Assembly (NCBI GenBank): GCA_030141605.1
Contig: JAQGDQ010001137.1
Span: 1-59,906 of the forward strand
Source of the DNA: Tubiluchus corallicola
Lineage: Eukaryota; Animalia; Priapulida
DNA length: 59,906 nucleotides
Direction of reading: 5' to 3'
In this document: positions 3,049-9,000 of the stretch, one piece after another
Position numbering within the stretch: the first letter of the stretch is position 1
How the letters are laid out: every line of letters starts with the position of its first letter
Notes under the pieces: model-generated
Told to the model about the DNA's origin: nothing
Database searches by the model: none
The model's input: only the letters and a program-made list of their open reading frames with translations
Made by a program: the position numbers and the translations under genes

Positions 3049-6000
3049 GTATCAAAAGTAAATTCATTCGTTAGTAATTTCTATTCTCAAAACACGTAAT
3101 TATTTATGGAGGAGAGCGATTTAAAATTTGCTGTCATGTTGTTCGTCTTTAAATGGGTGAAAATTTAACAACGTTGTAATTGAGCTTTCCTGCTTGTGTC
3201 ATTACAAACTGCATGATTCATTTTCTTTCCAGATACAATAACACTAATGTTTCATTTCTGTGCCCGGTCTTCGTAACACAGCTTACGTTTTCAAGTTTCA
3301 ACAAAACATCGGAATTTACACAAAGAAACAATTGCAATAAGTGCTGTTTAACTTCCTCAGGACCGCACCACTTAAAATGGATCTTATGAGACCTATGACT
3401 TTTCTGTTACTGTATGAGCACAGACACAACTAAATGATTACAAACTAGGTGCTGTTCTATTTAGGAGAATCTCCGTTATCCAATCATGTTATTTGTTTAA
3501 GCATTTAAGATTTAATTGGATAAAATTCAGAAAAACTCACACTTTTCCAACATTGCAACTTAGTCCATTGAGTAGCTTAGTCTGGTGTACACTTGCATGA
3601 TCGTACACACTATTTTATTGATCACCTGCTTGCTAGCCCAAGAGAACTGTCTGCTGTACAGAGTTCCAGGAAAAACCAACCGATCAATCAAGGATAAATT
3701 AAGATCGTCTCAAATTCCAACAGAATTTCTGCTTAAAAATAGAATATACTTGAGGCCAAAGTATATCAGAGTGTTATGCCCGGACAGTTGAAATTTTCTG
3801 CATAAGCCGATTTCGTACAAGTGATACTGTACATTGAGTTCTCAAATACAAATATTTGCTTGGAATTCGTGTAATACTTATTAAAACATTGGATTTCTGA
3901 TGACTAGATTTAACCAAATGACTAATGCATTTCTAAGATGCACTTTGCTGTTTCTTATCACTTTCTTCTATCCAATCCCAAACGCTTCTTAAATACAAAT
4001 CAACAGGGTCAATTTCCGCCTTGTTCAATATTCCTTCCGCCTGATTTACTACATATGTTTTTAACATAGCATGGTACTTTTCAAAATCTGGTTCCATTAG
4101 ACCTTCATTTGATGGTATGGCGTCATTATCTAATTTGTTGGCTATAGCACACGCTGCATCTTCTGCCAATGTTAACAATGGAATGCCACTCATTTCTTTA
4201 TGTTTTAGATCTTCTAAGATATTAACATCATTTAGCAGTGGGTGAAACATTGCGCCTTCTCGGCAACAGTCCCCAATGTACTGGAATATAGAGACAGCTC
4301 GAGCTTTCAAGTTTTCTGTGCCCCAGTCATCTTTAGTGGTCACCACTTCGTGCAAGAAGGCCACTTTTAACATGTAAGAGTCAATGACCTTATCTGGTTG
4401 ATACTTTATTGCTCCGTATAATTCTGGCAAGTTGACATCTGCACTGACCAAACCGGCGTGGAATGTTGAAGCATTATGACTGAGGTATAAATGTATTTCT
4501 TTGTTGCAAGAATATAGGACAGGCTTTACTAGCACCTTTATGAGGATCAACACCATCTTACGGTTGTTGTCTAAGTTCTTTATAAATTCACATTCAGCAA
4601 CAGCAAATGTGGGTTCAACTTTTGTTTTTGATTCATCTGGTTTGACCACGTAGTGATAACTGTTGACAAACTTTGGCCATTTATCATTGGCATTCTTTGG
4701 TACTCCCACTTTTTCAAAACATGGTGTCACATCTACAGAGACTTGTGCTATTTTTTTGTTTGGCAACAGAATACATAATTTCATACATGTACAGACTTTA
4801 TTCCATTCCACTACATGTGGAAAGCTGTTTGGCACAATTATTTCTTTCAATTTCTCTTCTTGCAAAGCTGTTGCCACGCCTTCGCACAGGGATTGGGAAA
4901 ACTTCTCCTTTAATTTTCGTAAATCTGCTGTGAAATCTCCGTGCAGTTGTACCACAACAAAAAAATCAAACTCATCTGGCTGGCCAATCTTTACTCCACA
5001 AGCCGAACTGCCGACCAGTATGGGCACAAATCTTATACGATGATTTTTGTAAACAATTCTGCTAACAGCATCTAACAATTCCTCTATATTGGTTCTAATA
5101 TAGTCAAATTCTTTCTCATTTGAAATTTTTCCTAGTCCAGGCATGAAAACCAACTCCTGTAGAGTCAATCCATCATGAATGTTTTTTGACACTGTTTCAT
5201 CATCTTCTGTGACAGAAAACTCTGAAGACACTTCTTGCCACATTTGAAAGTACCGATAAGAAAGAAAAAGTCCTGCAATTTGTTTATAATTTCGGTTCAA
5301 TGCCTTTTCGTAAGCTCGTTGGATGCAAATATCATAAGCCATTTCATGAGACTCATTTAACATTTCGGTCTGAACTCCTATATCAATGAGGTATTTAACA
5401 ACGTCTACACTTTGAGCTGACAAGTGAGCAAGATGACAAGCCAGATGAATTAGACTTCCTCCATTGTAAAGTTTATTTACTATCTGTTTCACTACTTCAC
5501 CTGAATACCTCTCTAGCATATTTTCATATATTAGTTTAACAACATCCAGTCTACCTCTCACACATGCTAGGATAAGTGGGGTCCAACCCTGATTATGTTC
5601 TGCCAGAATGTCAGAGCCCGCACAAATCAGAACTGCTGCACAATGAACATGTCCTTGCATTGCTGCCCAATGGAGAGCGGTATTACCTTCTGTGTCTAGG
5701 TAGAAGACATTTGCACCTTTGAGAAGCAGCAAAACAAGGGTTTCAAAGTGCCCTTGAAGTGCTGCAGCATGGAGGGGCGGAGGACAATCAACTAAAATGT
5801 AAGGATGTTCATCAATTTTGGCGCCATATTTAATTAACAGCTTCACTACTTCAACGTGGCCTAGCAGTGATGCACGCTGTATAGGTCGTATTTTATACGT
5901 TTCTGGGAAACCATCAACTTCTGCTCCGTAAACCAACAGCATTTCACAAATTTCTGTATGTCCCCTTTTACCTGCTAATGTTAAAGGCGACCATCCATTC

Positions 6001-9000
6001 CTTTTAGAAAGACAGTTTATTTCAGCACCCCGTTCAATGAGTTGCTGTGCAAGAAAAGTATGTCCCAAATAACATGCAACTCCAAGGGGGGTTACTCCCT
6101 CATAGGTTACACTTTCCATTTCTGCTCCTCTTTCGAGAAGTTCATGAACAAGCTCATGCATGTTAAACTGCGTTGCAGAATGTAGCAGCGCGTTGAGCAA
6201 CTCTGTTCCATCTGCATCAATTCTAAGAGCAAATTGGTAACGACTTAGTAACGCCTCGAGTAAAAATTTTTGAATGGCATCTGACACACTGTGAATAAGT
6301 TCCTCGATTCTTTCCATATCAACAATCAAAACCACTTCTCACTGTAATCTTTTAGTCAGGTAGCAGAAAAACCAAAGTGGCTAATTTATATTGTGTATCA
6401 AAAATATCACACAAACAGCATACAAAATGGTCTTATGCTTTATTTTATTTTCAAGCACGTAAACTTGTACCAGATAGTAGAACGTTCTAGCGAATAATAA
6501 TTCCACAAGGTGTGATAGTAAAATTTGTGCATATTGTTTTTCTTGATATCAAGACTGACCTTTGTACCTTAATCACAGCAAACTGTTGACCAAAAAACGT
6601 ACAACTTATCTTGGCAAATAAGACGCTATTTGTCTAAGCCGTGTTATCAGATATAAATAGGAAAGCATGGAGTCTTGGATAAATTGTTGCTGTATATTTA
6701 ATTCTGAACATGGACTCTTGATACAGTCTTTTAGGTTCATTTTGTTTATATTTTTATTTATTGGTGGCCATTACATATTTTCAAGGCTTGATAATGTAGT
6801 TGTACTCAAAATGAAAATATAATTATTATGGAGCTAGCAATAATTATATATGTACAAGAAAAATATACCCAGTCTATAGGTTGCTGTGACGTCAGTCTGG
6901 AATATAAGAACTACTGAGCAGCATTGCAACCCCTTTTAATATAGTTGACTTTGTATTCTAGTATGATTTTGTGTATATCCTATACTTAGGTTGCATTAAT
7001 AGCTTAATTTAGTTAATTACTTATGTTAAATGAATGAGTCATTAGTTAATTACTCATTAAGCGAATTTATCTACTACAATAAAGCAAGTAGTGACTGTAC
7101 ATATATGAGCACGCACCTAGTTAGCTCTGGGAAGGGTCCCACCTCATACCTGTCCTAGATCTCCTTTACAAGAAAGTAAGTGATTGGTCATACGCTCAAC
7201 TGAACAGGCTATCTGGCCAATAAATCGTCGTGTTAAAGGACAAGGTCATCCAGTTTTACCTGTTCTAGAAATTGAAACCAGGTTCAACACAGTGTGTCGA
7301 ACGTGCTAAGCCAGTGAAGTCGTCGAATATGGCTTCCGACGAACATTCATTAATAATCGAAGTCAAGACTTAAGTACTGTGGCGACAGAAAGTGATTAAA
7401 GGGCACTGACACACCAAAGGGTTAGGTGTTCGAGCCGTGAGGCGAAAACACCAATAAACTGGCTATTATTCGTTATTTTACGTACTGCTGTAAACGGAAA
7501 TTCAGGAAATCTGATGCAGAAACAACCAGGTGATGACCAGACGTTGTATCAATGGTAGTTTCACGAGCTCCACGGGTCAGGACTCCACTGCACTCCACTA
7601 GGATTGGAGTACTTTACCACTTACGACTCCGGTACACCTGACACGCATTGTAGAAGTGGCCATATAAGATTCTGCCCCTTGCTGAGCTTTGGAAGAGTAA
7701 CTGCGCAAGATTCCACGAAGTTCGCATAACCATTTAGTCACGTTATTCCAGCTTCCAGAGTGATGGAGAACGTCAAGTGTTGGAATCCGACAGTGTCCGA
7801 CTTTTCAGGCACTCCAACTCAGCCTATTGAGTAACTTAGTCTGGTGTACACTTGCGTGATCGTACATATTAATTTAGTGATCGCCTGTTTGCTACAGCTC
7901 AAGCTGTGCAGTGTTCAGCTACTGTTCCAGGAAAAACCAACCGATCAGCCAAGGAGAAATCAAGGTCATTTCATCTTGTAACAAGAATTTCTTCTTGAAA
8001 ATAGAGCAGAGTTGAGGTCAAAGTTTATCAGAGTGTTGTGTCTGGACAGTTGAAATCTTCTGCATTAGACGATTTCACACAAGTGATCATACTGATCAAA
8101 CACTGCAGTGCTTCATGAAGCCATGCAAAATGCAGCAAACGCTTACGGTCCTAAAGGAGTTAATGTTTTTGCAGTAGTCCTTTTTTTCTTACTTATTTAT
8201 TTATTTATTTTTATTTAGACCTGCTAACCTAGTATAGTTCATGTTGCTACGATAGTAAATAACATAGTGACATGATATACAATTTCCAAGTAAATTTTGG
8301 CATGTAGGACCAAGAAGATTACAATGCTAAATGTCTGAGGGTCTTTGCAATAAAAATTGACACGATTTTCTTTGGGTTGAATGTAGAACATTTTTTCTGG
8401 GCAGGTATGTCAATATTGTATATATTAATTTTGCTGGTATATATATGTATATACGATTCGAGGCTACAACTCGGACGACGGCACCATTTGTGGTGATCTA
8501 TATATCAAACGAAAGGTCTCGATCTGGTGTCGTGCCCCATAAATGGCCATTTTTCGGCCATTTTTTGCAAAAAATTGCAAAACTTATACCTCTTATTTCT
8601 TATTTCTAGAGAACGGGAATATGCCGGGGGCAGTGTCAAAAATAGATAGATAGCCCGTTCAGCGGTGGGTGTCATAGGCATATTTGGAATTCGCGAGAGG
8701 GCCACGGCGTCCCGTAACGGGCATTTTCCCGGACCCAACTCGCGATTTTTTTCGAAATTTTGGTCAAACAACCTGCGGAAAAAACGTTCTAGCGGCGCCT
8801 GGTGCTCAGAAGGAGATATACGGCTCTAGAAAGAGGAAGAACAGGGCTACACGATGATGTGGGCTATATCTTAGGACACGTCCACCAAGAGGAGTGCCGA
8901 GGAGTTAATTAGATGTTCTATTTTCGGCAATTTTCGCTTGGAAAACTGCTGACGCAAAGCCATTGTTCTGACGTCATCCATTGTACTCTGCTTATAATCG

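Follow-up and report, generated by a model that had tools for sequence, protein, structure and literature searches.

An intact ankyrin-fused cGAS-like receptor gene between the ends of a TTAA/terminal-inverted-repeat element, antisense in a spectrin intron

Results

The gene and its host

We analyzed a 59,906-nt stretch of contig JAQGDQ010001137.1 from the priapulid Tubiluchus corallicola; this whole stretch is called the window, and all coordinates are window positions. An intact gene for an ankyrin (ANK)-fused cGAS-like receptor (cGLR) lies in it on the minus strand, enclosed in a transposon-like unit of 4,816 bp (positions 3348–8163, hereafter the unit) within one intron of a spectrin gene. 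The cGLR gene has a single open reading frame (ORF; 3933–6338, minus strand), which when read from the ATG at 6317 gives a coding sequence of one exon (3933–6317) and a protein of 794 aa. On the same strand, the ankyrin array (5247–6206) corresponds to residues ~38–357 and the cGLR/Mab-21 domain (4116–5174) to residues 382–734.

The host gene is read from the plus strand. Among its 21 candidate exon frames, 17 matched the Pfam family Spectrin, and 26 collinear blocks obtained with tblastn together with the exon at 9192–9322 gave 27 exon-like blocks in the window. The cGLR ORF lies antisense inside a GT-AG intron (3049–9191) between the plus-strand exons at 2914–3048 and 9192–9322, both identified by Pfam frames and tblastn. 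An earlier note on this DNA, made from its letters alone, had described an ORF antisense in an intron of a 27-exon beta-heavy spectrin. The position, the exon number and the spectrin identity were confirmed; spectrin repeats that run without a break for more than 1,500 residues suggest that the host is probably of the beta-heavy type, whereas the database names for its matches say only spectrin beta or alpha-like. The intronic position requires no functional tie between the cGLR gene and spectrin, and nothing points to one.

Identity of the enzyme

We compared the 794-aa protein with Pfam and found matches to Ank_2 (E = 3e-51) and, above its cut-off, to Mab-21_C (E = 7.9e-7). The match to the Mab-21 nucleotidyltransferase (NTase) family was below the cut-off (E = 0.0068); the same family was above it for three relatives described below (P0004, P0005 and P0008). 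An AlphaFold2 model computed from an alignment of 11 sequences (mean pLDDT, the predicted local distance difference test, 85.5) contained eight ankyrin helix pairs plus one cap-like pair, and residues 382–734 of the model superposed on Cv-cGLR1 of the oyster Crassostrea virginica (8GJW) with Z 21.3 and a root-mean-square deviation of 2.9 Å over 293 residues. This was the sole recognised match of non-ankyrin type among the 50 structure matches listed. The best ESM Atlas matches were Mab-21 clusters (0.95). When the PDB was searched with the full-length protein, by Foldseek and by profile, the matches listed were all ankyrin proteins, and a PDB phmmer search with the enzyme domain gave a lone match, Sp-cGLR1 (8GJY, E = 0.2). 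Taken over Mab-21_C, Mab-21 and ESM Atlas, the homology covers the NTase core and the C-terminal helix bundle.

The motifs GSSACG, DEFD and VDVTP start at residues 436, 448 and 528, and the G[S/G] loop and [E/D]h[E/D] X50–90 [E/D] triad of cGLRs are present as G436 S437, E449 F D451 and D529; the last two are separated by 77 residues. The residues ahead of the GS loop are LVGS, compared with h[QT]GS in the wording of the results of Li et al. (2023; PMC9980059); since the Priapulus cGLR catalogued in that study also reads LVGS, its authors did not apply h[QT]GS strictly. The gene thus encodes an ankyrin-fused cGAS-like enzyme with an intact triad, and the protein is likely an immune sensor of a known kind. 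These results bear out what had been read from the letters, namely the unbroken 794-aa frame with about eight ankyrin repeats and an NTase domain, the hGS/EhD signature with the third acidic residue in VDVTP, and the cGAS/cGLR fold; the check with Ank and Mab-21 profiles that the earlier note had proposed also came out positive, except for the Mab-21 NTase profile itself. The gene had further been called intronless. This holds for the coding sequence, and an extra non-coding 5΄ exon is possible. In 6318–6380 (minus strand) we observed a branch-point-like sequence and an AG, the latter 24 bases 5΄ of the start codon, as a possible acceptor for such an exon, and at 6323 an insertion of 4 bases is present in some other copies of the gene.

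Relatives of the enzyme domain

HMMER, run against 1.84 billion representatives with the enzyme domain as query, gave 13 matches, of which 10 were full length; three short ones (85–248 aa) were kept out of the alignment. All 10 full-length relatives contain ankyrin repeats. G436, S437, K443, E449, D451, the clade motif WNKVC (505–509) and D529 were invariant in all 11 aligned proteins, which show 27–49% identity. The closest relative, P0002, has the same full build and 48% identity over the whole length, and in the tree it forms with the window protein a separate, long and fully supported branch. Relatives were also sought in metagenome contigs (70 pattern matches) and viral contigs (126 pattern matches), and none was confirmed.

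Four relatives are named proteins of Priapulus caudatus. One of them, XP_014668761.1 (P0008), has 29% identity to the window protein in the matched part of the enzyme domain and is listed with ankyrin domains in supplementary files 1, 2 and 4 of PMC9980059. According to the parts of that study covered here, some cGLRs carry ankyrin repeats, and the supplement counts two cGLRs and five STING genes in Priapulus. The statement of the earlier note that ANK-fused cGLRs occur in invertebrates is therefore correct, given that all full-length relatives are of this kind and that one is in the catalogue. The other three (P0007, P0009 and P0010; XP_014670921, XP_014661479 and XP_014675828) are ankyrin-cGLRs with intact triads that we did not find in the covered parts of the supplement.

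P0008 and the window protein share the N-terminal ankyrin repeats followed by a cGLR domain, LVGS, EFDF, hDh and WNKVC. They differ in that the enzyme domain of P0008 is basic whereas the window protein is acidic, in that the window gene and P0002 stand on their own long branch, and in that the window gene lies inside a TTAA element with terminal inverted repeats (TIRs), the comparison being one of proteins rather than of Priapulus genomic context. Cv-cGLR1, which is activated by double-stranded DNA and produces 2΄3΄-cUA (PMC9980059, parts covered), resembles the window protein in fold over residues 382–734; in contrast to it, the window protein is acidic and ankyrin-fused, and the two have 14% identity.

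The unit that encloses the gene

The unit has TTAA at each end, imperfect 14-bp inverted repeats and two arms of one repeat family. Its features were compared with contigs of public runs, of which X1, X2 and X3 come from one sample and X4 from a second study. At the left end, the TTAA (3348–3351) and 14-bp TIR (3348–3365, plus strand) are of the same end type as sequences at 32091 and 14634, and host contigs end there at 3370 (X1) and 3360 (X4). The left arm (3348–3836, plus strand) is a high-copy non-autonomous TTAA/TIR repeat that is broken off at 3836, where other copies of the family diverge from it (34 X1 contigs). It is followed by the 96-bp 3΄ flank of the gene (3837–3932, minus strand), the coding sequence and ~560 bp of 5΄ flank (6318–6883, minus strand), a part of the unit to which several related contigs also align. 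The interval from there to the right arm is an unclassified mid-copy repeat (6884–7799, not assigned to a strand) with a depth step and loose ends at 6884/6886. The right arm (7800–8163, plus strand) belongs to the same family as the left arm and ends in a 14-bp TIR and TTAA (8146–8163, plus strand; TTAA at 8160–8163) of the end type seen at 38612 and 16680, with loose ends at 8163 in 93 X1 and 78 X2 contigs.

Self-comparison showed that 3541–3825 recurs at 7800–8087 (79% identity over ~290 bp) and elsewhere in the window. In the alignment, the left arm stops inside the element body and the right arm restarts ~190 bp from the left end, with an internal deletion. The two ends of the unit, a left-type one and a right-type one, belong to a family that is present at four other places in the window, and both arms align to the same members there. 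This is the layout of a Pack-TIR, in which sequence not derived from transposable elements (TEs) lies between the ends of one TIR family. Shuffling the flanks 1000 times gave a TTAA-anchored pair as good as the observed one on 17 occasions; this result is modest by itself, and the repeat-family evidence weighs more. The unit shares with piggyBac-like elements (Bouallegue et al. 2017; PMC5381638, parts covered) the TTAA on both sides, repeats of about 14 bp that start with C, compared with the published 12–19 bp and C[C/A/T][C/A/T][T/G/A][T/A/G][T/G/A], and a length within 1.7–8.5 kb.

Because this TTAA/TIR-bounded unit brackets the gene, capture at the DNA level is favored over retroposition. 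We also considered a retrocopy and rejected it, as 3837–3932 contains no poly(A) tract and ~560 bp of 5΄ flank is included. The earlier note had regarded the neighboring sequence as decayed TE DNA and the gene as a secondary insertion; insertion is supported, with the element ends pointing to DNA-level capture, and the neighboring sequence is indeed TE-derived, yet it is not mere background.

If the gene were instead a conventional, selected nested immune gene, the adjoining repeats would be chance insertions. In favor of this reading, the frame and triad are intact, and repeats of this family are common, at least three further pieces lying in the window. However, one repeat copy would have to lose its right end exactly and another its left end exactly, with TTAA outside both, and two further results given below, the arm-gene junction common to copies and a private change at G480, are left unexplained. 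We consider this explanation quite improbable.

Searches of the flanks of the gene in Pfam and Rfam gave nothing useful, and the mid-copy repeat had no informative Pfam match and no Rfam match. This repeat, which lies directly upstream of the gene, could be a source of promoter sequence; it contains a 26-bp palindrome at ~7033–7058. A reading of 6884–7799 as a long terminal repeat, suggested by eye from its TG start, was dropped because no target duplication was found. Partial copies of the TTAA/TIR family lacking the gene are found in other spectrin introns (16680–16990, 32091–32326 and 37690–38612). A 22-bp satellite (~44 copies from 14753; region 14634–15711) starts just past the left-end-like sequence at 14634, as if grown from an element end. 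Many host introns are also filled with tandem arrays with periods of 17–146 bp (10795–13628, 19564–20673, 43544–45635, 50223–51787 and others), several of which begin at or overlap an exon-intron boundary, e.g. at 10795, 32920, 36593 and 50223.

Related copies in public runs

We next consider the number of copies. Because summed contig depth is not copy number, we relied on the difference in contig counts between sites. The host exon sites were covered in X1 by a single contig (depth 241), compared with 13–15 contigs at each of the ORF sites 4848, 5794 and 5875, and the summed depth across 3900–6869 was 1,702–7,422. A total of 1,001 X1 contigs matched 3790–7060, with 209, 255, 302 and 235 in the identity classes of 99% or more, 95–99%, 90–95% and below 90%, respectively, a count that includes the edge repeats. 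The X1 sample therefore contains many related copies of the gene. Host contigs stop at 3360–3370 and resume at 8128–8222, and many contigs continue beyond 8163 in DNA unrelated to the window, which is what the end of an element would give. Joints that skip ~4,265 bases were considered as deletions of the gene and rejected; they are other repeat copies that align partly to each arm.

At 3842, which lies six bases in from the left junction, we counted 10 (X1), 13 (X2), 4 (X3) and 1 (X4) contigs. The left arm-gene junction is crossed by an X4 contig, and the one near 6884 by contigs of X3 and X4. No loose ends were found in 3837–3990 for X1, X3 and X4 among the matches listed. As 10–13 contigs of one sample cover 3842 and this interval lacks loose ends, most copies seem to retain the left arm.

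These counts also bear on the possibility that the repeat arrived before the gene, which gap filling from a donor then copied into it a single time, the other copies being ordinary paralogues or a tandem array that was never mobile. Most animal Pack-TIRs are single-copy and formed in this manner (Tan et al. 2021; PMC8277862, parts covered), the duplicated 290-bp stretch could prime a template switch or unequal crossing-over, and the depth in X4 suggests few copies. The number of contigs at the left junction base in a single sample and the lack of loose ends beyond it argue against this possibility, which we regard as unlikely.

Run X5, which carries the species label of X1 and comes from another study, has thin coverage: 45 of its 58 matches were below 90% identity, 3900–4009 and 6100–6869 were uncovered, and one contig leaves the gene at 4074. 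An older relative that lies outside the element might account for this, and with such coverage we built nothing on it. Run X6, which may be an RNA run, covered neither the host exon nor the ORF and thus speaks neither for nor against expression.

Selection on this copy and on the family

To describe selection on the window copy, we pooled the 40 best-supported ORF rows, which are not a random draw, from two listings with 641 and 542 further rows, and took a change as private if at least 80% of the depth disagreed with the window in X1 and likewise in X4. There were 19 such rows, of which 15 were replacement and 4 silent changes. The neutral expectation is 71–77% replacement; accordingly, ω = 1 fits (P = 0.31–0.56), ω = 0.5 is borderline (P = 0.03–0.11) and ω ≤ 0.3 is rejected (P ≤ 0.011). 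One private change is at a conserved helix position, where the window protein has G480 and 9 of the 10 relatives, as well as the other copies, have A. In the other copies, six of seven ORF gaps among the rows listed (with 35 further rows) were of three bases or compensating, and a 79-base skip has 34 bases in its place.

The result is limited by the window sequence, in which errors or null alleles occur: the spectrin exon 14361–14565 shifts frame near 14500 and its match to P0015 goes on in the next frame, an assembly error or a null allele that calls for caution on base accuracy. This copy is likely under weak or no purifying selection and may be drifting even while the family keeps its frame. 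The gaps suggest that the gene family as a whole is kept open. As the private changes are 15:4, the unbroken frame is not proof of selection on this copy, and the earlier conclusion that an intact frame points to a functional sensor is weakened. Positive selection can also give immune genes a large number of replacement changes, which would suit a conventional nested gene, and relaxed and positive selection are inseparable in these data.

The same ratio would be expected if the whole amplified family were passenger DNA, that is, a captured silent gene multiplied by the element alone, because the private changes match neutrality and strong constraint is rejected. Nevertheless, related contigs occur in all identity classes to below 90% and yet the listed ORF gaps mostly keep the frame, and a relative at 48% identity retains the whole build. 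Passenger DNA is thus a very improbable account of the family.

Discussion

We propose that the gene described here, an intact ANK-cGLR in a TTAA/TIR element, was probably captured as DNA by a piggyBac-type element and spread to many sites. Two pieces of a non-autonomous TTAA/TIR repeat would have enclosed an older ANK-cGLR gene of one coding exon along with its 5΄ flank, which would explain why the 290-bp stretch is present twice at 79% identity. Duplication of this composite would then have followed, through a transposase supplied in trans or through repair synthesis that used the repeat as template. That TE-mediated duplication of some kind took place appears highly probable, while the chances of repeated transposition of the whole unit are about even.

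Several observations weigh against parts of this proposal. Six-frame Pfam scans of both flanks detected no transposase, the sole long frame being the cGLR gene, and the inverted repeats fit the published six-base piggyBac motif at four and five of six positions. Compared with piggyBac-like elements, the unit thus has no transposase, has repeats matched at 11 of 14 bases and is off the motif at the fourth base at both ends; it is at most a non-autonomous piggyBac-like derivative. In X1, the depth of the 5΄ flank is about half that of the ORF. In X4, most ORF bins have a depth of 18–205 (two at 661–789), near the host contig depth of 80; this run weakly backs several copies by contig counts alone (no more than 8 per site), and its sample may have far fewer copies or uneven cover. 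The run contigs, which are short, include none that spans the unit, and they revealed neither a further insertion site nor an empty one nor a parental copy, so that movement of the whole unit remains putative. With regard to function, 5 of the 11 aligned enzyme domains are basic (pI 7.9–8.7), from which acidity is a trait of some branches and not a clade-wide rule. Finally, XP_014668761 was not found in the covered parts of supplementary file 3 of PMC9980059, which we take to be the table of screened enzymes; the architecture and clade have already been catalogued, and the enzymes are apparently unscreened.

Among known Pack-TIRs, Ssk-FB4 of Drosophila melanogaster (PMC8277862) is the one protein-coding multicopy case in the parts of that study covered here. 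It is a TcMariner-type element with a junction-protein gene whose parent and insertion sites are known. The two cases are alike in that a near-whole coding gene with its 5΄ flank lies between the ends of one TIR element in several copies. Unlike Ssk-FB4, the unit is of the TTAA/piggyBac type and has a partly duplicated element body, its cargo is a 2.4-kb gene for an immune-type enzyme, and its parent and other sites were not seen; the median cargo of Pack-TIRs is 224 bp (PMC8277862). The word piggyBac is absent from the main text of that paper, the supplements of which may list cases of this type. In the literature searched by title and abstract opening, a search outside which most subscription journals lie, we found no paper that describes a cGLR as the cargo of a transposon. 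The enzyme type and Pack-TIRs are each already known, and a cGLR enclosed by transposon ends was not found in the literature searched.

The computed isoelectric point (pI) is 5.5 for the whole protein and 6.0 for the enzyme domain. According to the covered parts of PMC9980059, cGLRs that sense nucleic acid have a pI above 8.5 and acidic cGLRs have been proposed to read other ligands, so that a ligand other than nucleic acid gains some support from a pI of 5.5. The protein ligand that the earlier note had suggested for the ankyrin array likewise gains some support from this acidity. The family protein is predicted to be an acidic enzyme switched on by a non-nucleic-acid ligand, probably a protein read by the ankyrin array, and once switched on to make a cyclic dinucleotide for STING, as other cGLRs do. 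The array may act as ligand reader or as brake, as its fusion to the enzyme and the pI suggest. Judged by its sequence and model, this copy appears to keep the enzyme machinery.

If the unit never moved, the gene would be one more member of a catalogued architecture. Some animals have more than 200 cGLR genes, and recent amplification has been suggested for insect clusters, with no mechanism given in the parts of PMC9980059 covered here; a cGLR between transposon ends offers a testable mechanism for such amplification. It would also join a small number of animal cases in which an enzyme gene, whole and intact, lies in a TIR element, and close paralogues that differ in their ankyrin arrays would form a natural panel with which to find the ligand of a cGLR that probably does not sense nucleic acid. 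We tentatively raise the further possibility, which we hold to be doubtful, that a piggyBac-type transposon serves as the vehicle of an innate-immune receptor gene, with tens of ankyrin-cGLR mobile cassettes that carry their own upstream DNA, vary between individuals and diverge fast. If true, such cassettes would be an animal parallel to the bacterial cGAS-like defence carried on mobile elements, and would provide a mechanism for the sudden expansions of cGLRs in invertebrates.

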